64,000 nt of DNA from Candidatus Micrarchaeota archaeon (GCA_016932815.1 JAFGCC010000002.1:1889-65888), one strand, 5' to 3'; positions 15,972 through 38,570 are shown, counted from the first letter of the stretch. Notes: generated by a model from the letters alone, not told the origin. Program-made: numbers and translations.

Positions 15972-16011
15972 AAACAAATTGGGTATATAGAATATCCCGA
16001 ATTAACTGAAT

Positions 16012-19278: not shown

Positions 19279-19818
19279 ATGAGCGAAGAAAAAGAAAAGG
19301 CTGCGGAAAAAGAAGCTGCGGCGCAAGATAAGGACGCGAAAGAAGAGGCTCCCGCAAAGGCGAAGAAGGAAGAGGTAGTGGAAGCTTCCGCTCCCGAGAA
19401 AGACGAGGCGGACAAGCCCGCAAAGAAAAAGAAGCCGGGAAAGCTGGCAGTCGTCCACGTATATTCTTCCAAGAATGACACTATTATTACCGCAACGGAC
19501 ATAAGCGGTGCGGAAACCCTGTCCTGGGCAAGCGGCGGAATGATGGTCAAATCCTCAAGGGAAGAGGGCAAGCCATACGCTGCGATGCAGGCTGCGCAGA
19601 AAATCGTAAACGACCTGCGCGAGAAGGGAGTGGACACTGTCCACATAAAAATCCGCGCACCCGGCGGAAACGGCTCCAAGACTCCGGGCGGAGGCGCACA
19701 GGCAGTCGTCCGTACCATTGCGCGCATGAAGATGCGCGTCGGGAGAATTGAAGATGTTACACCCATACCAACCGACTCCATGAAAAGGGCAGGAGGAAGA
19801 AGGGGAAGGAGGGTGTAG
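19279..19818 (+). CDS. rps11: 30S ribosomal protein uS11
   Basis: [26 protein letters not shown]. Confidence 0.97.
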
Positions 19819-20436: not shown

Positions 20437-21465
20437 ATGGCCCAGGATGATGGTTCTTGCTGCCCCAAAAAAGAGGGCATTTCTTTTTCCCCGAAGGTTG
20501 TTTCCGAATTCTCAAAAAAGCAATACGGGATTGTGGGGAATCATTCTGCCGTTCAAATCTGCGGGTGGACCAAGAGGTTCCTCCGCGGAAAGGGCGCATG
20601 CTACAAAAACAAGTTTTACGGGGCGGATACGGCTTCGTGTGCGCAGATGAGCCCTTCTGCGGCGTGGTGCTCGCAAAACTGCATATTCTGCTGGAGGCCC
20701 ATGGAATGGATGGAATTCAAGCAGATGGATTCTTCTTGTGTTGATTCGCCATGTTCCATCATTGAGGGGGTTGTTGCGGCCAAACGCAAATTAATTAGCG
20801 GCCTTGGGGGGGCTGAAGATGTTAATGAGGAACTCTTTAGGGAGGCTCTTGATTCCTTTCCAAAGCATTGGGCGATAAGTTTAAGCGGGGAGCCTACGCT
20901 TTATCCGCGCCTTCCGGAAATGATTAAGCTGCTAAAAGAACACGGGGAGGTAAAGAGCGTATTCTTGGTTTCCAACGGGCAGCATCCTTCCATGCTGCTT
21001 AGGTTAAAGGAAGAGGGGGCTTTGCCCACGCAGCTCTACATTTCCGTTGACGCTGCGGAGCCGGAAACTTTTTCCAAGGTGAACGTGCCCGTTTTTTCGG
21101 ATGGGTGGGAGAGGCTTGGGAAAACCTTGTCTGTGCTAAACGATTTGAAATGCAGGAGGGTTTTGCGCTTTACCGTGATTAAAGGGCTCAACGATTTAGA
21201 GTGGATGCTTCCGTTGTATGCTAAGATGTTTGAAGATAGCGGGGCGGATTTTATCGAAGTGAAAGCTTACATGTGGCTGGGGTATTCGCGGCGCAGGCTT
21301 TCCGGGGAGAACATGCCCACGCACGAGTACGTAAAGGAACTCTGCGGCAAGCTGCTAGGATTCATGGGCAACTATCGCTTTGAGGATGAGGATTCCAATT
21401 CGCGGATTGTCCTGCTCAAGCGCAAAGACAGCGTTTATGAAAACGTGATAAGCAATGTCGGATGA
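20437..21465 (+). CDS. taw1: tRNA 4-demethylwyosine synthase (radical SAM, Taw1/TYW1)
   Basis: HSAVQICGWT, CYKNKFYG, CSQNCIFCWR, AISLSGEPTLY, FIEVKAY. Confidence 0.94.
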   Translation: MAQDDGSCCPKKEGISFSPKVVSEFSKKQYGIVGNHSAVQICGWTKRFLRGKGACYKNKFYGADTASCAQMSPSAAWCSQNCIFCWRPMEWMEFKQMDSSCVDSPCSIIEGVVAAKRKLISGLGGAEDVNEELFREALDSFPKHWAISLSGEPTLYPRLPEMIKLLKEHGEVKSVFLVSNGQHPSMLLRLKEEGALPTQLYISVDAAEPETFSKVNVPVFSDGWERLGKTLSVLNDLKCRRVLRFTVIKGLNDLEWMLPLYAKMFEDSGADFIEVKAYMWLGYSRRRLSGENMPTHEYVKELCGKLLGFMGNYRFEDEDSNSRIVLLKRKDSVYENVISNVG

Positions 21466-21583
21466 GGCTTCGTGCAGGCGCGCTATTGGGCAATCTCTCC
21501 GAGATTTGCGGGTTTGCTCCTGGTTTTTCGTGCGGCGGGGCCTTAGGTAACACTTATAAGCTGTTTATACAACAAATCATAGT

Positions 21584-21997
21584 ATGGAATGCAAGACAAT
21601 CCATGCCCATCCCAAATGCGAGCCTCCCCGCAATAAGCAGCTGCCTGCTGTCAACTGGGGCAAGCTGATACTAGCTGCAGGGGGTGTGAGCGCGCTCGTT
21701 AGCGGGGCGTTCCTGTTTGGGTATTCTTCCTCCCAATCCACCGAGGTAAAATATACTTCGGGCGCCCAGGAGCCGGCAAAGCCCTGCATATGCACGCAGG
21801 AGGATACTCCCGCGGAGCGGAGGGATAAGCTTCGCGGGGACGTGCGCAAGCTAAGGGAACTCCGAAGTACCGTGGAGAGGGCGATGCTGGAGCTTGAAAT
21901 CCTCTCTGCGGACATCAGGGGGAAGCTGGATGCGCTTGAAGCTGGGGAAGTTGATGATTCCCTTGAGGGGGAGAAATCTCCTGCGGATACTAATTAG
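21584..21997 (+). CDS. Array member A: single-TM coiled-coil protein with CxC after the TM
   Basis: TM LILAAGGVSALVSGAFLFGY, PCIC, heptad E/L/R-rich C half; AT-rich promoter-like sequence upstream. Confidence 0.75.
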   Translation: MECKTIHAHPKCEPPRNKQLPAVNWGKLILAAGGVSALVSGAFLFGYSSSQSTEVKYTSGAQEPAKPCICTQEDTPAERRDKLRGDVRKLRELRSTVERAMLELEILSADIRGKLDALEAGEVDDSLEGEKSPADTN

Positions 21998-22011
21998 CTG
22001 GGTTTTAGGCG

Positions 22012-22437
22012 GTGGGCACTTTGCGGAAAATTGAGGTTAAGGGAAAACTTGCAGACACCGTTCATCCATTGCGGAGAATCCAGGTGTGGAAGCCTGCACC
22101 AGAATCCATTATGGTTGTTCAAAAGGCCCCGGTTCGCAGGCCCCCAAAATGGAAGAATGCCCTGCTAGTTTGCGCCATGTCCGCCTTCGTTGTGGCGGAG
22201 GGGTATTTCGTATTCAGCGACCTCAAGAGGCGCGTGGATGAGATACGTGCGGAAATCGGTTGTGAGGGAGATGGGCTCAAGCGGGATAGCAAGAGCCTCA
22301 GGGCACAGGTTGAGAGGCTAATGGAGAATTCCAATCGCATCGCCCTGGAGCAGGAAGCGATTTGGAGGGAGCTTGAGAGGCGCTACGGCGGGGATGCGGG
22401 GCTTGTGCGCTGCCCGGAAGGCGAAGAGTGCAGGTAG
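22012..22437 (+). CDS. Array member B: single-TM coiled-coil protein ending LVRCPEGEECR
   Basis: TM ALLVCAMSAFVVAEGYFVF; coiled coil; shared C-terminal motif. Confidence 0.8.
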   Translation: MGTLRKIEVKGKLADTVHPLRRIQVWKPAPESIMVVQKAPVRRPPKWKNALLVCAMSAFVVAEGYFVFSDLKRRVDEIRAEIGCEGDGLKRDSKSLRAQVERLMENSNRIALEQEAIWRELERRYGGDAGLVRCPEGEECR

Positions 22438-22438
22438 C

Positions 22439-22480
22439 TGGATTTGCTTTTTAAACTTTCCTTTACACTAATTATAACTT
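22439..22480 (+). promoter_or_regulatory. Repeated array promoter, copy 1 (TTTTTAAAC...CACTAATTATAACTT-ATG)
   Basis: Alignable with 25342-25383 and 26472-26506; TATA-like box ~30 nt before an ATG. Confidence 0.65.
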
Positions 22481-22499
22481 ATGAATAGTAAGGGCCTTC

Positions 22500-22997
22500 A
22501 TGTTACGGGGGGTGGAAGCAGGAATCGGGGAAACTGCGCCAGTACCATCAGGGGGGGGTGCTAAAAAGCCAGGGGCACGCTGGGGAAGGCGGATATTTAC
22601 TGCAACCCTCATAGCATATGCTGCCGTTGTTTGCAGCCCCTTGGGTGAGCGGGGAACGGCTACGGGGAATCCGGGCAAGCTTGGGGGCGGGGCAGTTGAA
22701 AGCCGAAAACCCCCAAAAGATATCGGAAAAGAGCTATCTAAAATACGAAGCGGGATTTCCGAACTGCAGGAAATGCAGGGGGAGATTCTAGAGGGCCAGG
22801 CATTGATGATAGATGATATACGGGAGATGTCAGAGAACCGGGAGAGGAACCGAGGGGAAATGGAACGGGAACTCAACGAACTAATGGAAAGCCGCACCAG
22901 GCAGATGAGGGCACTGGATGCAATCGAATGGGAATTGGGCAGGCGGGAAGGGAAATTGCCCATTTTGCGCTGTGGTGATGGAGGAGAATGCAAATGA
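22500..22997 (+). CDS. Array member C: single-TM coiled-coil protein ending ILRCGDGGECK (start uncertain)
   Basis: TM IFTATLIAYAAVVC; coiled coil; shared motif. Confidence 0.78.
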   Translation: MLRGVEAGIGETAPVPSGGGAKKPGARWGRRIFTATLIAYAAVVCSPLGERGTATGNPGKLGGGAVESRKPPKDIGKELSKIRSGISELQEMQGEILEGQALMIDDIREMSENRERNRGEMERELNELMESRTRQMRALDAIEWELGRREGKLPILRCGDGGECK

Positions 22998-23638
22998 TTA
23001 GGCAGATGCACCGGAATTTTAAGTGCGTTATCCCTTCACCCAAACGCAATTTCGGCAGGGGGGCAAATGCTGGGTGGAATGTGCAGGGAAGGATGCTTGC
23101 GAAAGTTGAAACCGCCAAGCTTCCGCTGCCGAAAATCCGGGGGCGCAAACCCCGGGCGGAATCCGTAACCAAGGCGGAGAAGGAAACCCGGCAGATGGAC
23201 CGGAAATTGAAACTCCAGATCCAGCTGATTGTTTGCGGCACTTGCGCAACGATAATTGGAATATGTGCGGGGGCATTTTATTTCATGAGCAGGGAAATGC
23301 TCGCCCTAAACTCGGACATAGAAAGGCTCGCACAGGCTGTAGGGCCCATGCAGGAGGGCCTAGATGAGATTGACGGAATGGCAGAAGATTTGGAACGCAT
23401 AGAAAACGACCTTGAGGCCATGAGCGAAAATTTGAGAGGGCTTGGTGGAATAGAAAAGGACCTTGAATATGGAAGGGCGGAGCAGGGGCTTATCTGGAAG
23501 GCGATTATGCTGGATGCGGAGGGGAAGCTGGGGCCTGCGGAAAAGGCGGAACTCGAGGCGGAGCGGAGAGAGCTTAAGAGGCGCTATGAGAGCCGCAACC
23601 GGATTGTCCGCTGCCCGGAAGGAGGCGAATGCAAATGA
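22994..23638 (+). CDS. Array member D: MIRQMHR leader, single TM, coiled coil, ends IVRCPEGGECK
   Basis: ATGA overlap with previous gene; TM LIVCGTCATIIGICAGAFYF. Confidence 0.82.
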   Translation: MIRQMHRNFKCVIPSPKRNFGRGANAGWNVQGRMLAKVETAKLPLPKIRGRKPRAESVTKAEKETRQMDRKLKLQIQLIVCGTCATIIGICAGAFYFMSREMLALNSDIERLAQAVGPMQEGLDEIDGMAEDLERIENDLEAMSENLRGLGGIEKDLEYGRAEQGLIWKAIMLDAEGKLGPAEKAELEAERRELKRRYESRNRIVRCPEGGECK

Positions 23639-24270
23639 TTAGGCAGATGCACAGGATTCTGGATAATGGGAAACACACTATTAGGCCCAAGCGGGGCTTT
23701 GGCAATAGCGGCAACTTATTGCGCAACAGGCAGGTTCTGGAAGAAGGTGCTGCCGCGCTTCGCAGGCAGAAGGGGAGTGTCCCCCTGCCTCTCCCAACTG
23801 GGGAGGGTGCCCTCTACAAAGCAGCCATGCACGTTGCGGAAAAATGGAAATCCGATAAGCCTTTCCGCAAAAAGGTAATCCTTGCTGCCATCATAGTTGC
23901 GCTTGCAGCAGGAGAAGTGCATGCGTGCAGCACGTATGCGCAGAATTACTACGAGAAGGTGCAGATGCAGGAGGCGGCGCGGGCGGAGCGGAGGAGATAC
24001 ATCCTAAAGCAACTCGCTGAAATGGAAGAGAGGATTGACCGATTAGTTGAAAAGCGGGCGGATGCCCTGGAGCAGCAGGTGGAGCAACAGGAAGAAACGA
24101 TAAAGAAAGTTATTGAGGGGCAGCAGCGCGACAGGGAGAACTTCCGCATCATAAGAAGGGAACTCAGGCTCATTCAGGAGCACATGGTAAGGCAGGGGCA
24201 TACGTTTGATGGCGGGCTGGTTGAGGAAGAGCCTATTGTGCGCTGCGAAGATGGGGGAGAATGCAAATGA
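23635..24270 (+). CDS. Array member E: MIRQMHR leader, single TM, coiled coil, ends IVRCEDGGECK
   Basis: ATGA overlap; TM VILAAIIVALAAG. Confidence 0.82.
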   Translation: MIRQMHRILDNGKHTIRPKRGFGNSGNLLRNRQVLEEGAAALRRQKGSVPLPLPTGEGALYKAAMHVAEKWKSDKPFRKKVILAAIIVALAAGEVHACSTYAQNYYEKVQMQEAARAERRRYILKQLAEMEERIDRLVEKRADALEQQVEQQEETIKKVIEGQQRDRENFRIIRRELRLIQEHMVRQGHTFDGGLVEEEPIVRCEDGGECK

Positions 24271-24776
24271 TTCGGCAGCGGCACCGGAATTTGCAGCGCG
24301 TTGTTCCTGCACCTAAGCGGAACTTTGGGAAGAAGAATAATGATGCGTGGAAGGTGCAAAACAGGATGCTCACGGAAGTGGGAACCCGGGGATGCCCCAT
24401 GCGGAAAACCGAAATCCCAAAAGAAAGGCCCCTCTATGGGATGGTTGCGCGGGCTGCGGAAAGAAAGAGGCCGCAGATTGCACTTGCAGGGTGCCTGCTC
24501 CTTGCGGGAGTGCTTACTGCGGCAGTTGCATGCTTCGCGTACGTTTGTTATAAAAAAATCGAAGCGCGGGACAGGGCGCTGGAGCAGAAGAGCGAGGAGA
24601 GATTCGGGGGGATAGAATCGAGGGCGAACCAGGACTTCAACCGGCTTGTTGAAACGCTCCAGAAGCTGGATGTTGGGGGTCTTGACAAGAAGCTCAGGAA
24701 GCTGGAAAAGGCGGAGTTCGGGGAAGAATGGAAACCGCCCATTGTCCGCTGCCCGGAGGGGGAAGAATGCAAATGA
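24267..24776 (+). CDS. Array member F: MIRQRHR leader, single TM, coiled coil, ends IVRCPEGEECK
   Basis: ATGA overlap; TM IALAGCLLLAGVLTAAVACFAYVCY. Confidence 0.82.
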   Translation: MIRQRHRNLQRVVPAPKRNFGKKNNDAWKVQNRMLTEVGTRGCPMRKTEIPKERPLYGMVARAAERKRPQIALAGCLLLAGVLTAAVACFAYVCYKKIEARDRALEQKSEERFGGIESRANQDFNRLVETLQKLDVGGLDKKLRKLEKAEFGEEWKPPIVRCPEGEECK

Positions 24777-25339
24777 GGAAGCAGATGCACCGCAATTTAC
24801 AGCGCGTTGTCCCTTTACCCAAGCGGAACTTTGGAAAGAAAGCGGATGATGCTTGGAGAGTTCATGGCAGGCTGCCCTCAAATGTTGAAACTGCGGGCTG
24901 CCCCCTGCGGAGAATTCCAATTAAGAAAGAGGGGCCCCTGCATACTGCCACGGTTAACGCTGGGGGTGAGGGGAAACCAAGAGCATCCCTGCTAAAGCAA
25001 CTGCTGTTGGCGGGGGTAATTGGTGCGGCAATCGGGTATGGATATTACAAGCTTACTGGGGACATCGATGCGAGAAACGAGGCACGGACGCAGGAACTCA
25101 TGCGGAAACTAGACGAGTTTGAAGCCGAACTAGCCGGGCCGGAAGGAAGCATCGCCAGGAGGTTTGAAGAAATAGAGCAGCGGCAGTATGAGAGGGCGAT
25201 AATGATAGAGGACCTGAAGGAAAACCTCGCACAACAGATGCAGGGCCTCCTAGAAAAGATTGATGAGGTTGAGAGGGTAAGGGGCGGGGGCAAGGCGAAG
25301 GAGATTGTCCGCTGCCCGGAAGGGGGGGAATGCAAATAG
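24773..25339 (+). CDS. Array member G: MRKQMHR leader, single TM, coiled coil, ends IVRCPEGGECK
   Basis: ATGA overlap; TM LLLAGVIGAAIGYGYY; leader closely similar to member F. Confidence 0.82.
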   Translation: MRKQMHRNLQRVVPLPKRNFGKKADDAWRVHGRLPSNVETAGCPLRRIPIKKEGPLHTATVNAGGEGKPRASLLKQLLLAGVIGAAIGYGYYKLTGDIDARNEARTQELMRKLDEFEAELAGPEGSIARRFEEIEQRQYERAIMIEDLKENLAQQMQGLLEKIDEVERVRGGGKAKEIVRCPEGGECK

Positions 25340-25341
25340 CC

Positions 25342-25383
25342 GGATTTTCTTTTTTAAACCTTTTCATACACTAAATACGACTT
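25342..25383 (+). promoter_or_regulatory. Repeated array promoter, copy 2
   Basis: GGATTTTCTTTTTTAAACCTTTTCATACACTAAATACGACTT-ATG; same spacing as copy 1. Confidence 0.65.
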
Positions 25384-25818
25384 ATGGAGAAAACCGCTCC
25401 CCCCAAACGGAGTTCCAATGCGCCGGTTCCAGACGCCATAGACATGGCCAGGCTTGAGAAGGCCGTAGAACGGGCAATCCGGGAGAGGTTCGCAAAGGCA
25501 GAGCGTGAGAAGCCGCGGGCAAGGTGGGGCGTTAGGCTCCTCGTTGCGGGGGCGCTTGCTGGCGGAATCGGGCTGGCTGCGTGGAAACTGGATAACCTGG
25601 AAACCAAGGTTGAGAAAATTTCCGATGAAAGTGCCAGGATGAGAGCGAGAGTAGACCAGACTGAGAAAAACGTCAGCGAATTGGCAGAGACGATGTCCGA
25701 AATCCTTGCTAGGATGGACGGGCTGGTTGAAGGCATTCAAAAAATTGCGGAGGAGGTGGGGTACGAAAGGGAGCAGGAATCCCTTATTCGCTGCCCGGAA
25801 GGGGGGGAATGCAAATGA
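25384..25818 (+). CDS. Array member H: single-TM coiled-coil protein ending LIRCPEGGECK
   Basis: TM LLVAGALAGGIGLAAW; KPRARWG resembles KPGARWG of member C. Confidence 0.82.
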   Translation: MEKTAPPKRSSNAPVPDAIDMARLEKAVERAIRERFAKAEREKPRARWGVRLLVAGALAGGIGLAAWKLDNLETKVEKISDESARMRARVDQTEKNVSELAETMSEILARMDGLVEGIQKIAEEVGYEREQESLIRCPEGGECK

Positions 25819-26471
25819 AGAAAAGGCCGCCGTACCTGAAGCTCGCTTATTCTAGGCCGAAGGAGTTGGAGGTCCAAGAGCGCAGGAGCCCGTGGGAGGG
25901 GAACGCCTCCGCCCCGAAGCATCTGGAAGCGGTGCCCCCCAGCCCGCCCGCGGGGTTTAAGGCCAAATCCTCCTGGGGAAAGAGGCTGATGGTTGCGGGA
26001 ATCTTCGTGTCATTTACGCTCTTCTGCAGGCAGCCGGGAGAGGATAAAAAGCCCCGGGGAATTGGAAGAAGGGGCTCTTCGGAAGTTAGCGAAATCGACA
26101 AATCCAGCACGGATATCCGGGAGGCATCCGGAGACATCCGCAAGGCTACCCAGGAGATAGAAGAATCCAACCGGGAGTTCATAAAATACATGGAACGGCA
26201 AAGCCGGGAGTTTTCGAAATTCATGGAGGAGAAAAACAGGGAGATTGAGGAATCGGGGAAAGGGTTAGACGCGCAACTAGAGGCGCTGAAGGCGGTAAAC
26301 AGGCGCCTTGAGAGGAGCGTGAGGGGGCTCTCCGGGGAATCGAAAAAGCTCAATGAAGGCGCGGATGGCGTGCTAAAGAAGACAGAGAATGTCCAGGGGC
26401 AGCAGAGAAAAATCCTAAGGCGGCTGCGCAGGATGGAAAACCAGCGCGGAGCGGAAAAAGGGGCTCAATAA
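25815..26471 (+). CDS. Array member I: single-TM long coiled-coil protein (no Cys tail)
   Basis: ATGA overlap; WGKRLMVAGIFVSFTLFC; internal repeat NREFIKYME/SREFSKFME. Confidence 0.8.
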   Translation: MKKRPPYLKLAYSRPKELEVQERRSPWEGNASAPKHLEAVPPSPPAGFKAKSSWGKRLMVAGIFVSFTLFCRQPGEDKKPRGIGRRGSSEVSEIDKSSTDIREASGDIRKATQEIEESNREFIKYMERQSREFSKFMEEKNREIEESGKGLDAQLEALKAVNRRLERSVRGLSGESKKLNEGADGVLKKTENVQGQQRKILRRLRRMENQRGAEKGAQ

Positions 26472-26506
26472 GGGTTTTTAACCTTTCTCCCACTAATTAT
26501 AACCAT
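26472..26506 (+). promoter_or_regulatory. Repeated array promoter, copy 3
   Basis: GGGTTTTTAACCTTTCTCCCACTAATTATAACCAT-ATG. Confidence 0.62.
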
Positions 26507-27019
26507 ATGAGGATGCTCAGGCAACTCCCTGCGGAAAAAAGCGGCAAGCCCAATAAACCATGGAAGGTGAATCCATGGAAACCAAGCGAGAAAGCCAAGG
26601 ACCGCATGCTAATAGCAGGGCTGGCAATAGTATTTACCGTGGGCCCGGCATCGATAGTGTATAATCTCTCTAGGATATCCAATGCAAATGGCGGGCCTGC
26701 TGAATCGGGCGCAAAAGAAGAAGCATACGTGCCCCCAAAAAGAGAAGAGGGGAACTCCCGGGAAACGCTGCAGGGAATCCTGGAAGCAAGGCGCGCGATA
26801 AGCAGGAGGGGGAGGGAACTTGATTTGATAGACTCCATGCCTGCGGGAGAGGAAAAGAACGCAGCCATAAAGAAGTTCTTATGGGGGATGAACGAAGGCT
26901 GCGAAGAAAGCGCAATGGGGGAAATGAGCGACTCAATCTACAGGCTGGAAATGATGATAGAAGATATCAGGGCGAAGCAGGAAGAAGGATGCGGGTGCAC
27001 AAACGAACCTAAGAAGTGA
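26507..27019 (+). CDS. Array member J: single-TM helical protein ending GCGCTNEPKK
   Basis: TM MLIAGLAIVFTVGPASIVY; near-terminal CxC; 3' end overlaps purP stop. Confidence 0.75.
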   Translation: MRMLRQLPAEKSGKPNKPWKVNPWKPSEKAKDRMLIAGLAIVFTVGPASIVYNLSRISNANGGPAESGAKEEAYVPPKREEGNSRETLQGILEARRAISRRGRELDLIDSMPAGEEKNAAIKKFLWGMNEGCEESAMGEMSDSIYRLEMMIEDIRAKQEEGCGCTNEPKK

Positions 27020-28085
27020 CCTCATCTAGCCTTCCGGTTTTTTCGGCTTCCTTTATCTCCATTGCAACGCGCCTCCCGAAACTTATTGGCTCGCGGTACA
27101 AATAATACGAATAGGGAGTAAAACGCGTTCCGGGGGAACCGGGCATCCTAAATGACACATCGAATACGACGAACCGTTCCTTGCCGTCTTTCTCCTCTAT
27201 TGCGCCCTGGAGCGCAAAAGGCCCAATTAGGCCCTGCGGGTAGAACTCCTTAACAGTTTCCACAAAGCGCTCTCCTGCTTCTATTCCCTTTTGCAGGAGC
27301 GATTCGCGCATCGTGCAGGATATGTGCCCGGCCTCTATTGTAGTGAAGCGGCGGTATTTTAGGACTTCCGACTGCTGGGGGGCGGGGAGGCGGAGCAGGC
27401 CGTCTATGTTGGTCTGCCTGCGCGTGTCTATTCCCAAGAGTTCAAGCTCCCCGCTCAAAGGCGAATAGAAGAAGTTGAAGTTGAACTGCGCGCCGAGGAT
27501 GAATTCCTCTATGCGCGCGTCTGCCAGGTCTTCTACCGCGATTGTGCCTTCGGAAATTAGCTGCTGGCTTTTTTCCTCAAACTCAGCAGGGCTTGCGGCA
27601 AAGAAGAATGCGCGCTCGTATGAGCGCTTGGCCTCCTGCACCTTCACTAAGGAGAGGACGTCTATTTCCTCCGGCTTGAACGTGCGTGCTATGTTGATTT
27701 TCGCGTTCTCAAGCAGGTCGTACTGGTTGTTTTCCGCGGTGCGCTCTTCTGCGCGCAGGAGGTGCTTGTTCCCGAAAATGGGGACTTTGAACTTGTTTTC
27801 TATATTGTCGTATCCGACGTAAACCGAGAACGAGCGGTTGGGGATGAAGACCGAATCGGAGAGCTTCTCCTGGGTTTCATCCGATATTATGTCCGCAAAT
27901 GAATCCAGGAGCAGGACGTCGTCAACTACGCCCATCCCCCTGCCGTTTCTGGTGCGGGACCTAAAGTGCTTTGAATATGTTACGTCCCTGCCTTTTTGGC
28001 ACACTACCATCGACTTGTATCCTTCTGCCTTTGCACCTTCGGAAACATCCAGCGCGGAGTGGCTTCCCAATGTTGAAATGAACAT
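27009..28085 (-). CDS. purP: FAICAR synthetase PurP family (ATP-grasp)
   Basis: ISTLGSHSALD, FIPNRSF, ERAFF, LIGPFALQ, FGRRVAMEIK. Confidence 0.9.
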   Translation of the reverse strand: MFISTLGSHSALDVSEGAKAEGYKSMVVCQKGRDVTYSKHFRSRTRNGRGMGVVDDVLLLDSFADIISDETQEKLSDSVFIPNRSFSVYVGYDNIENKFKVPIFGNKHLLRAEERTAENNQYDLLENAKINIARTFKPEEIDVLSLVKVQEAKRSYERAFFFAASPAEFEEKSQQLISEGTIAVEDLADARIEEFILGAQFNFNFFYSPLSGELELLGIDTRRQTNIDGLLRLPAPQQSEVLKYRRFTTIEAGHISCTMRESLLQKGIEAGERFVETVKEFYPQGLIGPFALQGAIEEKDGKERFVVFDVSFRMPGSPGTRFTPYSYYLYREPISFGRRVAMEIKEAEKTGRLDEVTS

Positions 28086-30420: not shown

Positions 30421-32709
30421 ATGCGAAAGGTTGCAATATTCCTATTGATATTCCTGCTTTTTTACGGCTGCATTGAAGAGCGGCAGATAAGCGTAAGCGG
30501 GTATGAGCAGATTGAGAGCCTAAGCGGCACGGACTTTACCGGTGACGGCATAAACGATTTCATACTAGCCACATACGCGCCAAAGGTAATCAACCCCGAA
30601 GTGGGGGTTTCCATAAAGAAAACCGTCGCGGTGTATCCGGTTTCGCTTAGTGCGCAGGTCATTAGCTGCATGCCCCTAACGGATTACGATTTGCAATACG
30701 TAAAGAACAGGATAAACGAGTTTGACGAGGCAAGAAGCTCCGGGGAGAGCAGCTGCTTCTCTGCTCTGGGAATGGGCGGGGGAACCTGCACGGACGTTGA
30801 CAACTGCCTCACGCAGTGCACATCATATGCATGCACGAGGGCGAAATCCTTCGGGGAGAACACCTTCGGAAACGAGCTCTACGTATTCAGCCACGAATCC
30901 TCCGAGATGGACAAGGCCATAGCGGATATTGAGGGAACCGTTTATACGGGCACCGAGGCGCAGAGGGAGGAACTGATAGAGGATATTACTACGCTCATGG
31001 CGCTATCATCCAAAATCTCTTCTAGCCTCCTGTTCCGCTCGGACGCTTTTGGCGCGTGCAGCAGGCCGATATACGATAGCGGAACGCTGTCTGCGGCCCT
31101 CTCAAGGCTGGGCAACATAACCGTCACTTCGGGCAGCTACGAATACAAGGTGGGAATAATCGCGGAGAGCGACCCCAACGAGGAGAGCATAGAGCTTTAC
31201 GTGAAGGATACCCCTCCGCTACTGCTTGACATAGACCCGGTAACACTGGACGTGCTAGAGGACGGGACGCTCTTTGAAAAAGAGCCGATTACGGTGGGGT
31301 GGGATGCGCTGGAGCTTGATGCGTCCCATGAAGTGATGTATTACGATTTTGTTTCCGCAGACGAGCCTTCGGACGAGGTGCTCTCCAAATGGAAGTTCCC
31401 CAAGATAAAAGAGAGGAACCTAAAGGCGCTAACCTACGTCAACCAGGTGCTCTCGCACCCTGCGGGCGCAACCGTGTTCATAGTCTCAGAATACGTTTTC
31501 AATTCCACGCTGTTCCTGGGGTATTATGCCGCATTGGGCGCTGCGATGTCGCTGTGGGTGATACTGCTTTTCCTCCTGGTTTTCCTGGGGGAGCTGCTCT
31601 ATTTCATAGCAAAGGCGGTAATGGACCGGAGGAATATGCGCGAGGCGCTCCTGGATTATTTCGGGGCACCCATGACCGACTGGAAGATGTATGGAATGGT
31701 GGGCGCGGTGCTAATGGGCGCAGCCGCAATGATTAACCTGTTCTACGTTGCCCCGGTTGCATCCGAGAACTTCCTAATAGATGAACTGGTGGCCACCCTG
31801 GGCTCTGATGCCGCAGGAGCCGGATGCGTGCTGCTATTCGTAATAGGCGCATACACTATTTTCCTGGTAATTGAGGATTGGCTAAAGGGAGTGGTTGTCG
31901 GCCCGGGCTATTATAGGCTAAAGAACGCAACCAAGGAAGAAAACACCAGGATATTAGCTGACCTGCGCGAATCCTGGCAGGCGCTCAAGATGAGGGTGGA
32001 AGACCTCTCCAAGACCGGGATGGTCGTGACAGAAGAATACGCGATAATCGTTTCGGTCCCAATAGAGCGCTTAGAGCAGATGATTGCGACCGGGAAGCAG
32101 GGGATGGCCAAGCAATTAATCGTTTTCAACCAGGAGAGGCTTGAGGGCCTCAACCAGAAACTGGACGAAAAGGTAAACGTGATGAACCAGAAATGGCCCG
32201 AGTGGGAAGTTGAGCTTGCAAAGGCGCTTGAATCAAGCGACCAGATACCACTCAACACCCTGCTGTTCATCCCCCTCCAATGGAGGGAATGGGCCGTGGA
32301 AAAGTACATAAGCGAGAACCGCGCAAAAGGATATGTCCTAGAAGGGGACATCGTGACAAGGAGGGAAGTGAAAGTGGACGACCTCCTGACCAAGAAAGTA
32401 GAGGAGATGGTAAAGTCCAATCTTGCACAGCAGGCAGTCATCCTCTCAAAAGACGTGGAGGTTTTCAACTCCTTTGCGAAGGGAAAGAGAACCGTTGCGG
32501 ACGTGTTGTTCCTAAAGCTTAAGGCATACTCCGAATCCCTTGCCAAAAAGATGGGGGCAAACGAGGTAAAGCGGTTCGTGGTTTCGGGAGGGAAGATGGC
32601 TGCGGTATACGTTAGCCATGATGGGCACCAGGCATTCATAGCCGCGCAGAAAGGGCGCATAAAGGAAGTGGTGGATGCCTGGGGCGGGACGGTGGAAAAA
32701 CTCAAGTGA
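30421..32709 (+). CDS. Hypothetical multi-pass membrane protein: lipoprotein-like signal, Cys-containing ectodomain, TM bundle, cytoplasmic coiled coil
   Basis: 762-aa ORF; MRKVAIFLLIFLLFYGC; several central hydrophobic helices. Confidence 0.85.
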   Translation: MRKVAIFLLIFLLFYGCIEERQISVSGYEQIESLSGTDFTGDGINDFILATYAPKVINPEVGVSIKKTVAVYPVSLSAQVISCMPLTDYDLQYVKNRINEFDEARSSGESSCFSALGMGGGTCTDVDNCLTQCTSYACTRAKSFGENTFGNELYVFSHESSEMDKAIADIEGTVYTGTEAQREELIEDITTLMALSSKISSSLLFRSDAFGACSRPIYDSGTLSAALSRLGNITVTSGSYEYKVGIIAESDPNEESIELYVKDTPPLLLDIDPVTLDVLEDGTLFEKEPITVGWDALELDASHEVMYYDFVSADEPSDEVLSKWKFPKIKERNLKALTYVNQVLSHPAGATVFIVSEYVFNSTLFLGYYAALGAAMSLWVILLFLLVFLGELLYFIAKAVMDRRNMREALLDYFGAPMTDWKMYGMVGAVLMGAAAMINLFYVAPVASENFLIDELVATLGSDAAGAGCVLLFVIGAYTIFLVIEDWLKGVVVGPGYYRLKNATKEENTRILADLRESWQALKMRVEDLSKTGMVVTEEYAIIVSVPIERLEQMIATGKQGMAKQLIVFNQERLEGLNQKLDEKVNVMNQKWPEWEVELAKALESSDQIPLNTLLFIPLQWREWAVEKYISENRAKGYVLEGDIVTRREVKVDDLLTKKVEEMVKSNLAQQAVILSKDVEVFNSFAKGKRTVADVLFLKLKAYSESLAKKMGANEVKRFVVSGGKMAAVYVSHDGHQAFIAAQKGRIKEVVDAWGGTVEKLK

Positions 32710-32820
32710 GGCTTTACGCTTGAGGCGGGGGCTGCGTTTCCGTCCCCAGAGTGAGATATGCAGAGTGTGGCAAATCAGAAATCGGGAGAGAGGATAACTA
32801 GATACAAGGATGTTGATTAC

Positions 32821-34701
32821 ATGGTTGAAGAATACGGCGCTGAAACAATCAAGGTATTAGAGGGGCTGGAAGGAGTCCGCAAAAGGCCCGCGATGTACAT
32901 CGGGGACACTTCAAAAAGGGGGCTGCATCACCTGGTATACGAAGTGGTGGACAACAGCATAGACGAGGCGCTTGCAGGCTACTGCAAGAACGTTGAGGTC
33001 GTGCTCACAAAGGGCGGCTCGGTAATGGTGCGCGATGACGGGAGGGGAATTCCCGTGGGAAAGCACTCCAAAACCGGCAAGTCCGCGCTGGAACTTGTAA
33101 CCACAGTCCTGCATGCCGGAGGAAAATTCGAGAAGAAAGCATACCAGGTAAGCGGCGGGCTGCACGGAGTCGGCCTCTCAGTCGTAAATGCGCTTAGCGA
33201 ATGGATGGAAGTGGAAGTGCACCTTGGGGGAAAGAAGCACCAGCAGAAATACGAGAGGGGGAAAGCGGTTACGCCCGTGGAAGTGCTCGGGGACACCGAT
33301 TATCGTGGAACGATAGTGAGGTTCAAGCCGGACATGACCATATTCACCGGGGAATTGGACTTCAGCTACCTGCGCGAGAGGCTGCGCGAACTCGCGTTCT
33401 TAAACGCCGGGATACGCATAGTCCTAGCAGATGAGGGCTCGGGGCAGAAGGAAGAGCTGCGCTACGAAGGCGGAATCAAGAGCTTCGTAGAATACATGAA
33501 CCGCTCAAGAAAGCCCCTGCACGCCCCCTTTGGCTACGGGAAGAAGGTGGATGACGTTGATGTGGAATACTCTTTACAGTACACCGAGAACTTCACCCCT
33601 GTTGTGCACTCTTTTGTCAACAACATAAACACAGTTGAGGGGGGAACGCACCTTGTGGGATTCAAGACCGCACTTACCCGTGCAATAAACGAATACATGA
33701 AGGACAACAAGGCGCTAAAAGAGAGGAAAATCAGCGGGGACGACGTGTTGGAGGGGCTTACCGCAATAGTGAGCGTAAAGGTCATGGAACCCCAGTTTGA
33801 AGGGCAGACCAAGACCAAATTGGGGAACGCGGAAGTCCGCGGGATTACTTCCAGCGTCGTCTATGAGAGCTTAATGCAGTTCCTAAACGAGAACCCCGCA
33901 GAGGCAAAGAGGATTGGGGAGAAGATGCTAAACGCCATGCGTGCGCGCGAGGCGGCGCAGAAGGCGAAGGAGCTAATTCGGAGAAAGAGCGTTTTTGAGA
34001 GCAGCGTGCTCCCCGGGAAGCTTGCGGACTGCATAGAGCGCAACCCGGCCAATGCGGAACTCTTCATAGTGGAGGGAGATTCCGCAGGCGGCAGCGGAAA
34101 GCAGGGGAGAGACAGGCAAACCCAGGCAATCCTGCCTTTGAGGGGGAAAATCCTCAATGTGGAAAAAGCGCAAATCAACAGGGTGCTGCGGAGCGAAGAA
34201 ATCAAGGCGCTAATTACCAGCCTGGGGACCGGGTTCGGAGAGGACTTTGACCTTGAGAAATTGCGCTACCACAAAATCGTAATCATGACGGATGCGGACG
34301 TGGATGGAAGCCACATCCGCACCTTGCTCCTCACCCTATTCTACAGGCACTTTAGGAGCATAATAGAAGGAGGGTATCTCTACATTGCCCAGCCGCCGCT
34401 ATACCAGGTTAGGAAGGGCAGGGCGGCAGAATACGCCTACGATGATGCGCAGCTTGGGGAATTGATGGGCAAATTCGGGGAGAACGCAACCATACAGAGG
34501 TACAAGGGGCTTGGGGAAATGAACCCGGGGCAGCTCTGGGACACCACGCTCAACCCTGAGAACCGGACGCTAAAGAGGGTTAGCGTGCAGGATGCGATGA
34601 GGGCGGACGAGCTATTTACCACCCTCATGGGAGACGCGGTTGAGCCGCGCAGGAAATTCATAGAAGACCACGCGCGCGAGGTGGAGAACCTGGACATATA
34701 G
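32821..34701 (+). CDS. gyrB: DNA gyrase subunit B
   Basis: [57 protein letters not shown]. Confidence 0.97.
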
Positions 34702-34710
34702 GTGGTACTC

Positions 34711-37245
34711 ATGGGAATCGAGAACATTGCAATTGAAGATGACATGAAAAAATCCTACATGGATTATGCGATGAGCGTCATAGTGAGCAGGGCGCTGCCG
34801 GATGTGCGAGACGGGCTAAAGCCTGTCCACAGGAGAATCCTGTATTCTATGTACGAACTTGGGAACACGCACAGCAAGGCGTACAAGAAGAGTGCGAGAA
34901 TCGTCGGGGAAGTCCTGGGAAAATACCACCCTCACGGAGACGCGGCGATTTACGATTCTCTCGTCCGGATGGCGCAGCCATTTAGCCTGCGCAACATGCT
35001 AGTAGACGGGCAGGGAAACTTCGGAAGCATAGACGGGGATTCCGCTGCGGCAATGAGGTACACAGAGTGCCGCATGAGGGGAATAGCCGAAGAGATGATC
35101 CGGGACATAGAAAAGGAAACCGTGGAATGGTCGCCCAACTTTGATGGAACGCTAAAGGAGCCAATCGTGCTGCCCTCTAGAGTCCCGAACCTGCTAATAA
35201 ACGGCTCATCCGGAATCGCGGTGGGAATGGCAACCAACATACCCCCGCACAACCTAATTGAGGTTGCGGATGCGATTATCGCAGCGATAGAGGGCGCGGA
35301 TGAGGAGGCACTCCTTGCCATTGTGCAGGGGCCGGACTTCCCAACGGGTGGATACATAGTCGGGCGCAGGGGGATACTTTCTGCGTACAAGAGCGGAAGG
35401 GGCATAATAAGGGTGCGCGCAAGGGCGCAAACCAAGGAGAGGGAAATCATTGTTACCGAAATCCCCTACCAGGTCAACAAGACCAGCCTGATACAGCAGA
35501 TAGTAGAATGCGTAAAGGACAAGAAAATAGAAGGGATAAGCGGCCTGCACGACCGCTCGGACAAAGACGGGCTGAATGTTAATATAGAGCTAAAGAGGGG
35601 CGAGGACCCAGAAATCGTGCTGCGCCAGCTTTATGCGCACACGGACCTGGAAAAAAGCTTTGGGATAATCAACCTGGCGCTGGTTGACGGGAAGCCGCGG
35701 CAGCTAACATTATATGAGATGATTCGGGAATTCATAGAGTTCCGCAAGGAAATCATAACGCGCAGGAGCCGCTTTGAGCTTGAGAAGGCAAAAGCGAGGC
35801 TCCACATCCTAGAGGGCCTTGTGATTGCTCTTGAGAACATAGACGCAATCGTGAAGATGGTGAAGGCGGCATCCAACGCGGAGTCTGCGCGCGCGGCACT
35901 ATCTGAAACCTACGGGCTAAGCGAGAAGCAGGCCCTTGCAATCTTGGACATGAAGCTCCAGAAATTGACCAACATGGAGCGCGATGGGATAGAAGGGGAG
36001 AAGCGCGAGAGGGAAGGCGAAATCCGCGGGTTATTGGAGCTCCTGGGTGATGAGAGGAAAATCCTGGATGTCATAAAGGCCGAAACCGAAGAGGTCAAGG
36101 CGAAATTCGGGGACGCTAGGAAGACCGAAATCCTAGAAGACGAGGAGGATGGCGACATCGAGTCCCTTATTCCCGACGAAAAGGTCGTGGTCACTTTCTC
36201 CAAGAGGGGATACATCAAGAGGGTGCCGCTGGAAGAATACAAGAAGCAGAGGAGAGGGGGCCTGGGAGTGATTGCGGCGGAAACCGTGGAGGACGACTTC
36301 ATAGTGGACGTTATCGTTACGACCAACCACAAGTACATGCTCTTCTTTACCGACGCAGGAAGGGTGCACTGGCTAAAAACGTACCGGATACCAGAGAGCG
36401 GAAGGTACTCAAAGGGCAAGCCAATCGTGAACCTGCTTGAACTTGACAATGAGAACGTCACCGCGTGGGTTTCCGTAGATGAATTCGGGGACGATGAGCA
36501 CCTGGTCATGGCGACTGCGAACGGGACTATTACCAAGACGATGCTGTCCGCTTTCAGCAGGCCCAGGAAGGGAGGCATAATAGCCATTACCCTGCGCGAA
36601 GGGGACTCCCTAATAGACGTTAAGAAGACGGATGGAGAGCAGAGCCTCCTGCTTGGGACACTTGATGGGCACTCTGTGCGCTTCAACGAAAAGGACGTGC
36701 GCCAGACCGGAAGGGGCTCAATGGGGGTTAGGGGAATCCGCCTCCGCAAGGGAGATGCGGTCGTGGGCCTTGCAGTATGCGACAAGCCCCATATCCTGAC
36801 TATCACCGAAAACGGGTACGGAAAGCGCACCGAAGTGGGCGAATACCGCATCCAGGCAAGGGGCGGCCAGGGGATAATCAACATCAAGGCCAGCGGAAGG
36901 AACGGGAAAGTCGTGGGGATTAAATCCACCGACGACTATGATGAGATAATAGTAGTCAGTTCCCGCGGCAGGATAGTCCGCATGGGCGCTTTGGGAATCC
37001 CGGTAATAGGGCGCAACACCATGGGCGTGCGCATAGCAAAGCTCAAGGAAGGCGAGAAGGTGTCCTCCTTTACCGTGATGAAGCCCGAGGAGAAGGAGGA
37101 TTCCGGCGGAGAAGAAGATGCGCAGGAGCCCTTGGGGCGCGGCGGAGGCGGAGAAGAGGGGGGAGCTTCGGGCATTTCCGGGGAAGGCGATGTCGGCGAA
37201 GCAGAAGGCAACGAAGGGGAGGAATATGGGGGGGAAGACGCCTGA
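34711..37245 (+). CDS. gyrA: DNA gyrase subunit A
   Basis: [25 protein letters not shown] (catalytic Tyr), GyrA-box QRRGGLG, beta-pinwheel repeats, acidic tail. Confidence 0.97.
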
Positions 37246-37310
37246 AGCGCTGATGCAGCCGACGGAAGATATTAAAAAAGGATTGTGTGATGGATATGCG
37301 CCGTGATAAT

Positions 37311-38570
37311 ATGTGGAAAAGCCTACTGCTCTTCATCGTGATGTTCGGAAGCCTCCTATGGGCGTGCGAGCCCGGGTTTACCGATGACCTGGAAATCAAG
37401 GTTATTGACTCCAAATACAGGCCCATAAGCGGGGCGGCGGTAAACATCACATACCAGAAAGACGAGACCACGGGCAAGGGATACGTTACCAGCACGACGC
37501 AATATACCCCGGAAGACGGGCTTTTGTCATTTACGGCAAGGAACATAGAGACTTTTGAGAGCCGCGTGGAATGCGACATAACCGTGATGGCGGAATACGA
37601 CGGAGTTGTGGTTGAGAGGGAAATTGAAGCGGAATCCCACTCGGCGCTCTTGCAGATGCGCTTTGAAGACGCATACCTCCTTAACATGAAGGTTGTGGAC
37701 AAGAACGGCCAGGCAATAGGCAATACGCAGGTGCGCATAAACGGGATGTACGTGAACACCTCAGACGAAGGATACATAGCAGTCATAGTGAATGCGGGAA
37801 CCGTGGAAGTGGCGGTGCCATACCTGGGAGCAGTAATAGCGCGCGAAATAGAAGTGGACTCCGATATGACCTACACGCTGCAGGCTAGGGCATATTCGCT
37901 TAGTTTAGACGTGGTTGACGACCGCGGGGACCCGCTTGTTGCGCAGATAACAGTAGAAGACAACGTGAGCCTGGGCACCGGGATTGACATTGAAGGGCTC
38001 GCAATTACCAGCCCGTATGTGAAAGTCGCATACGGCTCGGTGGAGAAGTTCCCCCAGATAGACCTTACGCAGGGGGGGCAATACCGGGTTTCATTTGACC
38101 TTACTCCCCCAGAAATTACCAATGTCGGGGTAGTGGGGAGCGGCGGGGACCTTAGGATAAGCTTCTTCCTAGAAGACCCCAATGCGCTTGCAAGCGGGCC
38201 GGACATAGGCTCTACCACCGTGAGCTACGTGGTTTCGGGGGTTACGCAAGAGGCGGTCCCCTATGCGGAGAGCGGGGCATACGCAGTGGAGATACCCGCA
38301 CCCCCGGAGAATACGCTCCTTCGCTTCACGATAACCGCCTACGACATGGAAGGGAACATGAACACGGTAAACGGGGAATACCTCGTTACCCCGGAGGCGC
38401 AGCAGGAGCCCGAAACCGGAAACGGGGGGGAAGGTGAAGGCCAGGGCGGGGAAACCGAACCCCCCTCTGAGGACGGAGGGCTCATCTTCCTGGCCCTTGG
38501 AGGAATCGTGGTGGTCGTGCTCGCATACGTTGTAATAGGCTATTTCAGGGGCCTTTCCGATGGAGAATGA
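37311..38570 (+). CDS. Secreted beta-rich surface protein with C-terminal membrane anchor
   Basis: Signal MWKSLLLFIVMFGSLLWAC; repeated (K/D)V(I/V)D..(P/A)(I/L) units; C-terminal TM. Confidence 0.8.
   Translation: MWKSLLLFIVMFGSLLWACEPGFTDDLEIKVIDSKYRPISGAAVNITYQKDETTGKGYVTSTTQYTPEDGLLSFTARNIETFESRVECDITVMAEYDGVVVEREIEAESHSALLQMRFEDAYLLNMKVVDKNGQAIGNTQVRINGMYVNTSDEGYIAVIVNAGTVEVAVPYLGAVIAREIEVDSDMTYTLQARAYSLSLDVVDDRGDPLVAQITVEDNVSLGTGIDIEGLAITSPYVKVAYGSVEKFPQIDLTQGGQYRVSFDLTPPEITNVGVVGSGGDLRISFFLEDPNALASGPDIGSTTVSYVVSGVTQEAVPYAESGAYAVEIPAPPENTLLRFTITAYDMEGNMNTVNGEYLVTPEAQQEPETGNGGEGEGQGGETEPPSEDGGLIFLALGGIVVVVLAYVVIGYFRGLSDGE

Follow-up and report, generated by a model that had tools for sequence, protein, structure and literature searches.

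Results

Ten genes for single-pass proteins between taw1 and purP

The window analyzed here is a stretch of 64,000 nucleotides from the genome of a Candidatus Micrarchaeota archaeon (GCA_016932815.1, JAFGCC010000002.1:1889-65888). Positions 21584 to 27019 hold an array of ten open reading frames (ORFs), g1 to g10, all on the + strand and framed by two genes recognizable from their domains: upstream a Taw1-like gene (Wyosine_form and Radical_SAM matches) and downstream, in convergent orientation, a gene with DUF1297 and DUF1246 matches, a combination that we take to denote the PurP family. This arrangement agrees with an initial annotation made from the sequence alone, which had seen in the array a candidate cell-contact or fusion system. 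Seven genes, g2 to g8, encode core members that share a cysteine-containing C-terminal tip; the other three are look-alikes. The genes are as follows, with lengths in amino acids (aa) and transmembrane (TM) segments in residue numbers.

g1, 21584-21997, + strand: 137 aa; basic N-terminal tail of 27 aa, TM 28-46 and a heptad-containing C-terminal part; an internal CIC at 68-70, the Cys tip being absent; a look-alike rather than an established paralogue
g2, 22012-22437, + strand: 141 aa from a GTG start; core member whose end is GLVRCPEGEECR followed by the stop; closes the unit g1-g2
g3, 22500-22997, + strand: 165 aa; core member with a Gly-rich linker past the TM segment, its end PILRCGDGGECK followed by the stop; opens the unit g3-g7
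g4, 22988-23638, + strand: 216 aa; core member with TM 80-98 and a tip lying 110 residues past it; overlaps g3 by 10 nt; long conserved N-tail MQMIRQMHRN..PKRNFG; orthologues P0005 and P0015
g5, 23629-24270, + strand: 213 aa; core member with the tip PIVRCEDGGECK before the stop; 10-nt overlap with g4
g6, 24261-24776, + strand: 171 aa; core member whose tip lies 72 residues past the TM segment; overlaps g5 by 10 nt; orthologue P0008
g7, 24767-25339, + strand: 190 aa from a conserved MQM start, or 203 aa from an upstream ATG at 24728; core member closing the unit g3-g7, its TAG stop followed by a T-rich tract; orthologue P0004
g8, 25384-25818, + strand: 144 aa; the simplest core member, with a short N-tail, TM 48-66, a single uninterrupted heptad stretch and the tip SLIRCPEGGECK before the stop; orthologue P0011
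g9, 25809-26471, + strand: 220 aa; MQM start, TM 55-73 and a long heptad-containing C-terminal part; no Cys tip; a look-alike
g10, 26507-27019, + strand: 170 aa; MRMLRQL start, TM 34-52 and CGC at 162-164; a look-alike

The orthologue of g2, P0010, begins at a Met that matches g2 residue 34. At the other end of the array, g10 and the convergent PurP-like gene share 11 nt at the 3' end of the latter.

A common layout of basic tail, membrane segment and charged helical part

A script scoring hydropathy (Kyte-Doolittle) and charge over all ten proteins returned one layout throughout, as the initial annotation had described. Each of the ten has an N-tail of 27–82 residues with a net charge of +3 to +15, one best hydrophobic 19-mer (mean Kyte-Doolittle 1.19–2.43, often Gly/Ala-rich) and a C-terminal part of 73–147 aa rich in E, R, K, Q, L and A, whose net charge lies between –10 and 0 in nine proteins and is +7 in the exception, g9. 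The tails of g4–g7 are highly basic (net +11 to +15 over 72–82 residues). A heptad region, also claimed for every member, could be verified for most: its periodicity exceeds that of 300 shuffles at p<=0.003 in seven of ten C-terminal parts (mean heptad score 0.71 vs 0.34 shuffled in g8), whereas the signal of g7 is marginal (p=0.033) and those of g6 (0.157) and g10 (0.153) fall short of significance. The distribution of charge fits the N-in/C-out (type II) topology proposed earlier, as deduced from the positive-inside rule. The CxC motif reported for the two outer members is present in both but lies near the C-terminus only in g10 (C162-G-C164 of 170); that of g1 (C68-I-C70 of 137) is 22 residues past the TM segment.

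In the seven core members the distances from TM segment to tip are 65, 70, 72, 91, 104, 107 and 110 residues, and thus fall into two length classes of 65–72 and 91–110 residues. A pilin-type protein was considered and rejected. In archaeal type IV pilins, the class III signal is a short peptide with a charged residue and a G/A cleavage motif directly before the hydrophobic helix; none of the ten proteins matches this pattern around the start of its TM segment, the N-tails are 27–82 aa long and those of g4–g7 are conserved.

Public gene calls are shorter than ours for three members: P0001 (g7) has 110 aa, P0007 (g6) 125 aa and P0009 (g3) 118 aa. All three start at internal codons and drop the conserved N-tail, and those of g3 and g7 also omit part or all of the TM segment, so that automated annotation would hide the common architecture. 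The N-terminal extents that we give for g3, g6 and g7 rest on conservation and on the ratio of nonsynonymous to synonymous differences (pN/pS), not on annotation.

Seven paralogues with a C-terminal cysteine tip

All seven core members end in [IL]xRC[PGE][ED]G[GE]EC[KR] followed by the stop, an 11-residue tip with two cysteines spaced C-x5-C, confirming the common Cys motif that had been reported for seven members. The motif occurs seven times in the 1.25 Mb genome, every copy being in the array, and all 10 matches of the family profile in this genome fall in the array locus. A second shared element, the N-terminal tail MQMIRQMHRN..PKRNFG..W.V, is common to g4–g7. Against the family profile, g2–g8 score E values of 1e-33 to 9e-72, the profile being built partly from the same sequences, and overall identity between paralogues is ~20–38%. 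The initial annotation, in which the coiled-coil regions were called not alignable by eye, had under-called this likeness. The three remaining proteins, g1, g9 and g10, reach hhalign probabilities of only 17%, 35% and 3% against the core profile, with alignments confined to the juxtamembrane/TM region in g1 and g9 and to the first seven residues in g10. As judged by these profile comparisons, the array consists of seven paralogues (g2–g8) and three look-alikes (g1, g9 and g10).

Differences between the paralogues point to selection on both ends of the proteins. For the last nine codons the pooled pN/pS comes to 0.21, and for the first 35 in g4, g6 and g7 to 0.35–0.44, at a pS of ~0.5. In a six-frame control the annotated frame has the lowest ratio (0.40), the next lowest being 0.62 and the other four 1.05–1.19, which identifies the + strand ORFs as the coding frame. 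The value of pS indicates that the paralogues are old, and a pN/pS of 0.2–0.4 shows that tail and tip are both under purifying selection.

Gene junctions and putative transcription units

The conserved DNA unit of the array is the gene junction: a 59-nt repeat that runs from the last part of a gene into the first part of its neighbor is present in six copies. Five junctions (g3/g4, g4/g5, g5/g6, g6/g7 and g8/g9) are 10-nt ATGCAAATGA overlaps, in line with the five ATGA-coupled junctions counted earlier, and the look-alike g9 is joined to g8 by the same 10-nt overlap as the core genes. At these junctions the codons of the tip serve twice. The Glu-Cys codons GAA-TGC give the ATG of the next gene, the Lys codon and stop, AAA-TGA, give a second ATG, and the Gly codons (GGA-GGC or similar) make a GGAGG-type ribosome site or G-rich stretch 8–9 nt upstream. 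From this layout, the internal genes are predicted to be translationally coupled via the overlaps.

Three promoter-like units precede genes of the array:

Before g3, 22443-22483, + strand: T-rich/TATA-like TTTTTAAA, then ACTAATTATAAC, then ATG 22481
Before g8, 25346-25386, + strand: 76% identical to the g3 unit and running directly into ATG 25384 (leaderless-type)
Before g10, 26475-26509, + strand: contains the third array copy of ACTAATTATAAC

The TTTTTAAA element lies ~30 nt ahead of an ATG at g3, g8 and g10, with ACTAATTATAAC next and the ATG immediately after it, and the region upstream of g1 bears a looser likeness to this arrangement. The 12-mer ACTAATTATAAC occurs four times genome-wide, three of these in the array, and T-rich tracts lie directly past the stops of g2 and g7. 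From these elements we infer four putative transcription units, g1–g2, g3–g7, g8–g9 and g10. Going by sequence, the first genes of the units are apparently leaderless and have short tails, and the internal genes are Shine-Dalgarno-coupled with long MQM tails. Two metatranscriptome runs belonging to the study of the likely source gave no match to the stretch, a result that speaks neither for nor against expression.

In this assembly ATG 22481 and the g3 ORF, whose start is at 22500, are in different frames. A DNA run from a different study, X2, has 4 fewer bases at a run of eight G near 22551, which places ATG 22481 in frame with an open product of 170 aa. Strain polymorphism, an assembly error in the homopolymer or slippage might account for the difference.

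Orthologues in a narrow group of species

The genome that carries the array has 1,246,214 bp in 25 contigs and is 91.5% complete. Outside it, relatives of the core family are rare. The core profile had no match in seven other genomes of the genus or in 98 other genomes of the family, and over 176 genomes of the order it found this genome and one weak match containing stop codons. Pattern scans gave 33 matches in 185,579 species genomes and 15 in 2.9 million viral contigs, with no relative confirmed in either set; two metagenome scans returned 55 and 596 pattern-matching stretches, again with no relative confirmed, and a tblastn search with g4 against 50,697 phage records found no match. A hidden Markov model (HMM) search of 1.84 billion protein cluster representatives yielded 12 matches at E<=0.001. 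Five of these are proteins of the window itself (P0001, P0003, P0006, P0007 and P0009), two (P0012 and P0013) are unrelated TM and coiled-coil proteins that lack the tip, and five are diverged orthologues from elsewhere: P0005 (g4), P0004 (g7), P0008 (g6), P0011 (g8) and P0010 (g2). P0015, a second orthologue of g4, is the sixth from outside. The HMM search suggested by the initial annotation has therefore recovered members on other contigs, though none was confirmed in the other genomes of the order. P0004, P0005 and P0010 come from a JGI source with a longest contig of 18,152 bp each and probably lie on one common contig; P0008 and P0011 are on Logan contigs.

Independent DNA also supports the array itself. 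Run X2 contains pieces that are 96–99.6% identical to parts of it, among them 22261-22602, 22577-22839, 23053-23322, 23397-23860, 24681-24938, 25501-25924 and 26038-26293, and 11 more; pieces so nearly identical in an independent run indicate that the array is not an assembly artefact. On the searches above, the family appears limited to a narrow species group. Our search of the open-access literature found no prior description of the Cys-tip family.

Both cysteines are invariant in 12 of 12 sequences of core members and orthologues, and the tip variants seen outside the array are LC in P0008 and PEEG in P0010. The full layout of the Cys-tip family, with a basic tail, one TM segment, heptads and RC[PGE][ED]GxEC[KR], is found in seven of the ten array members and all six outside orthologues. 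Across six orthologue pairs, identity is highest in the tip (54/66 residues, 82%), followed by the TM segment (97/138, 70%), the coil (287/457, 63%) and the N-tail (212/344, 62%). The coil of g4 is 66% and 75% identical to those of its two orthologues and free of indels over 103 residues, and every paralogue retains its own coil across lineages. Paralogue-specific coils, the absence of indels and a conserved tip together suggest non-redundant, individually maintained subunits under a length constraint. This pattern disfavors the diversified ligand family envisaged earlier, since paralogue-specific coils are kept (66–75% for g4) and the tip is the most conserved part (82%).

The taw1-purP site in relatives

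In all five genus genomes examined, a gap of 0.3–1.5 kb separates taw1 from convergent purP and cca. The gaps in those five genomes encode one or two single-pass proteins of similar general layout: a protein of 241–264 aa, here called A2, in four of the five, one of 93–95 aa in two and one of 199 aa in one. None of these gap proteins has the Cys tip. The A2 copies are:

L026:1033-1824
L025:1060-1806
L024:1091-1813
L023:8651-9406, minus strand

A2 is 30–38% identical across species, with an invariant K..W..RHP juxtamembrane motif and no Pfam match; it was found in five of seven other genus genomes, in none of 33 genomes outside the genus and not in the genome studied here. A2 resembles the array in slot and strand, in its basic tail and juxtamembrane W-x-x-R, in the one TM segment with a charged helical part behind it (180–200 residues in A2), and in its confinement to a narrow clade; it differs in being a single gene and in lacking the Cys tip. 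Homology between the two could not be shown: profile A1 aligned to A2 with an hhalign probability of 8%, over nine columns at the K-x-x-W-x-x-R motif only. A tblastn search with all ten members against the five genus loci and 26 loci of the family found no match. Outside the genus the taw1-purP adjacency is not conserved, with a purP-like match (28% identity) at one of the 26 loci and an array match at none. These comparisons suggest that the taw1-purP site is a genus-specific slot for fast-evolving bitopic envelope proteins, filled here by a ten-gene array.

Other small proteins near taw1 or purP were noted as well. The conserved single-pass protein of 93–95 aa adjoins purP (L022:9653-9937, minus strand, and L024:1860-2138), ends in ..W.MPPKR and is the sole gap gene in one of its two genomes. 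In other genera, L045 and L051 have minus-strand ORFs of 135 and 156 aa located ~0.5–1.0 kb downstream of taw1, with a basic tail, an RRW juxtamembrane motif, one TM segment and ends reading ..RGICP or ..RGICT. The bitopic layout thus seems common near taw1 in this archaeal family.

Genomic context

Core genes lie on both sides of the array: SecY, Cbf5/TruB, spermidine synthase, S13, RpoD and Taw1 on the taw1 side, and PurP, the CCA enzyme, GyrB, GyrA and PolB on the purP side. The GC content of the array is close to that of its flanks. No tRNA gene adjoins the array, the nearest being at 16011, and no Rfam element was found at it.

Several features elsewhere in the window deserve mention. Two large ORFs without a Pfam match resemble envelope proteins, and each is a possible surface partner of the array. 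The one at 30421-32709 (762 aa) combines an N-terminus that looks like a lipobox (..LFYGC) with four internal hydrophobic segments; that at 37287-38570 (427 aa) starts with a signal peptide and is anchored by a TM segment at its C-terminus. A full GyrB-GyrA DNA gyrase pair at 32758-37245 adjoins a family B DNA polymerase gene at 39432-41831. The ORF at 19279-19818, upstream of the RpoD-like gene, opens with ~55 residues of low complexity, rich in Lys, Glu and Ala, that precede its conserved body; the context given in the initial annotation suggests ribosomal protein S11.

Comparison with known systems

Searches of Pfam, NCBIfam, PADLOC and PHROGs with the ten proteins gave only sub-threshold matches, typical of coiled coils, in agreement with the earlier statement that no enzyme, integrase or known family is present. 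The best match to a PDB profile (E 0.003) is also a coiled coil, and in a protein atlas g8 had no feature match >=0.9 and only long-helix structural neighbors.

The initial annotation likened the layout to phage i-spanins and to FtsL/FtsB, with no claim of homology; the resemblance to i-spanins and FtsB/DivIC stands at the level of layout and is not supported as homology (hhalign of 0.2% against Rz). Weak matches to the PHROG 'Rz-like spanin' (families 739 and 1152) were obtained for three of the ten members (g8, 3.5e-5; g5, 4e-4; g4, 7.6e-3), but the unrelated control P0012 matches the same spanin PHROG more strongly (E 5e-7), and only one of five orthologues matches it. Homology to spanins was rejected on these grounds, together with an hhalign probability of 0.2% for profile A4 against lambda Rz and a BLASTP E of ~1. 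No o-spanin-like lipoprotein ORF was found among 261 starts in six frames of 21450-27100, and there is no phage lysis-cassette context, the flanks being housekeeping genes and no relative having been confirmed in the viral and phage collections. Like the array proteins, as predicted from their sequences, an Rz-like i-spanin is a small type II protein with one N-terminal TM segment and an outer coiled coil and linker. Lambda Rz ends in ..EQCR, a penultimate Cys followed by a basic residue, and the array proteins end in ..EECR or ..GECK. Unlike Rz, the array has a long conserved cytoplasmic tail, a second Cys (C-x5-C) and ten genes instead of one, and its host is an archaeon, with no partner lipoprotein gene and no phage context. 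Lambda Rz is documented as a type II protein whose coiled coils are periplasmic and whose C152, of 153 residues, forms a functional homotypic disulfide; spanin function needs either the Rz C152 linkage or the Rz1 C29 linkage, and the C-terminus of Rz tolerates no shortening, indicating a strict chain-length requirement (PMC5295617). The likeness between array and spanins appears to be one of design, not descent.

Among the atlas structural neighbors of g8 is a DivIC cluster, at a TM score of 0.50–0.57, below the naming bar of the atlas; the FtsB/DivIC/FtsL Pfam models (PF04977 and relatives) matched none of the ten proteins at E<=1. FtsB, DivIC and FtsL are short bitopic N-in proteins with an outer leucine-zipper-like coiled coil that act as hetero-oligomers. 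They differ from the array in being bacterial and in lacking the Cys tip, the long basic tail and the tandem expansion. An apex of two cysteines is also known from the Rad50 zinc hook, a CxxC at the apex of an antiparallel coiled-coil hairpin; in the array, by contrast, the C-x5-C lies one residue from a free C-terminus, and the Rad50 zinc-hook Pfam family was not among the matches at E<=1. An archaeal parallel is the S-layer anchor SlaB of Sulfolobus, whose membrane-anchored coiled coil of ~100 residues sets the width of the pseudo-periplasm (PMC6911244). SlaB and the array would share a membrane-anchored coiled-coil stalk, which in the array is predicted. SlaB, however, has a Sec signal and two to three lattice-holding beta-sandwich domains, and the array proteins offer helix only and an 11-residue tip. 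The SlaB combination of Sec signal, beta-sandwich domains and stalk was not found in the array, whose C-terminal parts of 73–147 aa are helical/heptad with no further domain, and no search showed a sequence relation to SlaB.

Discussion

The explanation that we favor, tentatively, is that the ten genes code for a clade-restricted orphan family of small single-pass membrane proteins of type II, which act as structural struts or tethers of the envelope. The basic N-tail would be kept in the cytoplasm, and the heptad region would form a membrane-anchored coiled-coil stalk of ~65–110 residues between the membrane and the cell wall. An alpha helix rises 0.15 nm per residue, and a straight-helix stalk of 65–110 residues from TM to tip would measure ~10–16 nm. 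Coupled synthesis would deliver the subunits together, allowing homo- or hetero-oligomeric bundles to form. The invariant distal C-x5-C may then lock the chains, by a disulfide or a shared metal ion, or dock a common outer partner; such a lock is proposed by analogy with phage i-spanin Rz, in which the penultimate Cys locks a dimer similarly. The struts would link a cytoplasmic partner, through the conserved tail, to a partner in the outer envelope, through the conserved tip.

Several observations weigh against this explanation. Part of the tip DNA conservation in the five coupled genes is not protein-driven, because the tip codons form the ATG and ribosome site of the next gene. The tip nevertheless appears conserved as protein too, since the uncoupled g2 and g7 keep it with differences that are mostly synonymous, the first Cys lies outside the overlap and pooled pN/pS over the last nine codons is 0.21. 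The ten C-terminal parts contain only two N-glycosylation sequons, which are common in exposed archaeal surface proteins, and the charges flanking the TM segment are ambiguous in g9 (N side +1, C side +4) and, in g6, weak. The source is recorded as sediment and, if this was anoxic, a metal site would be likelier than extracellular disulfides. Finally, because the TM-to-tip distances differ, the seven tips could not all meet in a single straight parallel bundle. In view of the near absence of sequons and the possibly anoxic habitat, the tip may be disulfide-bonded, metal-bridged or partner-bound.

A role in cell-cell contact or fusion is unlikely in our estimation. Under this explanation, the Cys tips of the rods would bind another cell, and zippering of the coils or hairpin collapse would join the membranes in spanin-like fashion. 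The array has the same layout as i-spanins, including the penultimate Cys, and three of ten members have weak PHROG spanin matches, but there is no homology to Rz, the spanin PHROG match is exceeded by the control and recurs in one of five orthologues only, and no ORF resembles an o-spanin lipoprotein (0/261 starts). The genome is small, as are genomes across the order (0.8–1.6 Mb), and restriction to a narrow clade fits partner-specific surface functions; yet the family was not found in seven other genus genomes, presumably of the same lifestyle, the paralogues are individually conserved and not diversifying, and both the symbiotic lifestyle and the DPANN lineage of the organism are assumptions. 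In favor of such a role, a preprint states that the proteins forming the cytoplasmic bridges between DPANN archaea and their hosts are unknown (bioRxiv 10.1101/2023.02.24.529834). A more elaborate version, in which the array would be a multi-subunit spanin-like bridging machine of a host-dependent archaeon, with rods of two length classes whose Cys-loop tips tether or fuse the envelope of a partner, strikes us as distinctly unlikely. The same holds, to the same degree, for its extension that the array might be the version of DPANN-host bridge proteins belonging to one lineage, with A2-like proteins serving sister species.

Three further explanations place the emphasis on the tail, on the cytoplasm or on a foreign origin. 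If the proteins were membrane-tethered regulators, the basic tail would sequester a cytoplasmic factor, protein or nucleic acid, and the outer coil would sense the state of the envelope, as in single-pass proteins of the anti-sigma type. A tail that is conserved in g4–g7 and their orthologues, under purifying selection and highly basic (net +11 to +15 over 72–82 residues) would suit such a function, and g8 has a weak match to an NCBIfam 'anti-sigma factor' (E 0.012, far below the cut-off). We regard it as quite improbable, given that no regulator gene adjoins the array, that g3 and g8, each first in its unit, have short and different tails yet keep the tip, that the tip and not the tail is the most conserved part, and that seven or more stoichiometrically coupled sensors would be unusual. 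The opposite arrangement, an inverted or non-membrane topology, would place the coil and C-x5-C in the cytoplasm, where two or four chains might share a metal ion in the manner of the Rad50 hook. By the positive-inside rule, translocation of tails of 27–82 residues with charges of +3 to +15 and no signal peptide is unlikely, and the Rad50 hook differs in motif and position, with no Rad50 Pfam match at E<=1; we hold this topology to be very improbable, even with two invariant Cys at the end of a coiled coil, almost no glycosylation sequons and a sediment source that, if anoxic, favors metal-thiolate over disulfides. A remnant or cargo of a virus or mobile element, such as lysis or superinfection-exclusion genes, might explain the patchy distribution, the weak PHROG matches to spanin and to families of unknown function, and a nearest atlas cluster by features that is viral (0.89, below the 0.9 lead bar). 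To this origin we give hardly any credence: no relative was confirmed in 2.9 million viral contigs or found in 50,697 phage records, searches for an integrase, a flanking tRNA or an Rfam element were negative, array and flanks have similar GC contents, all five genus genomes examined keep the same synteny around the site, and a pS of ~0.5 between paralogues implies long residence.

Should the proteins indeed be envelope struts or tethers, the array would define a cleanly delimited new protein family, in which a reduced archaeal genome spends ~5.4 kb, or 0.4% of its DNA, on ten co-expressed envelope rods, at a site that in sister species houses another protein built to the same design. Confinement of the family to one species group makes its general importance uncertain. 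Little is known of envelope and cell-contact proteins in archaea with small genomes, and the family would offer a compact model with three separable modules: a cytoplasmic tail, a rod of apparently constrained length and a tip with two cysteines.

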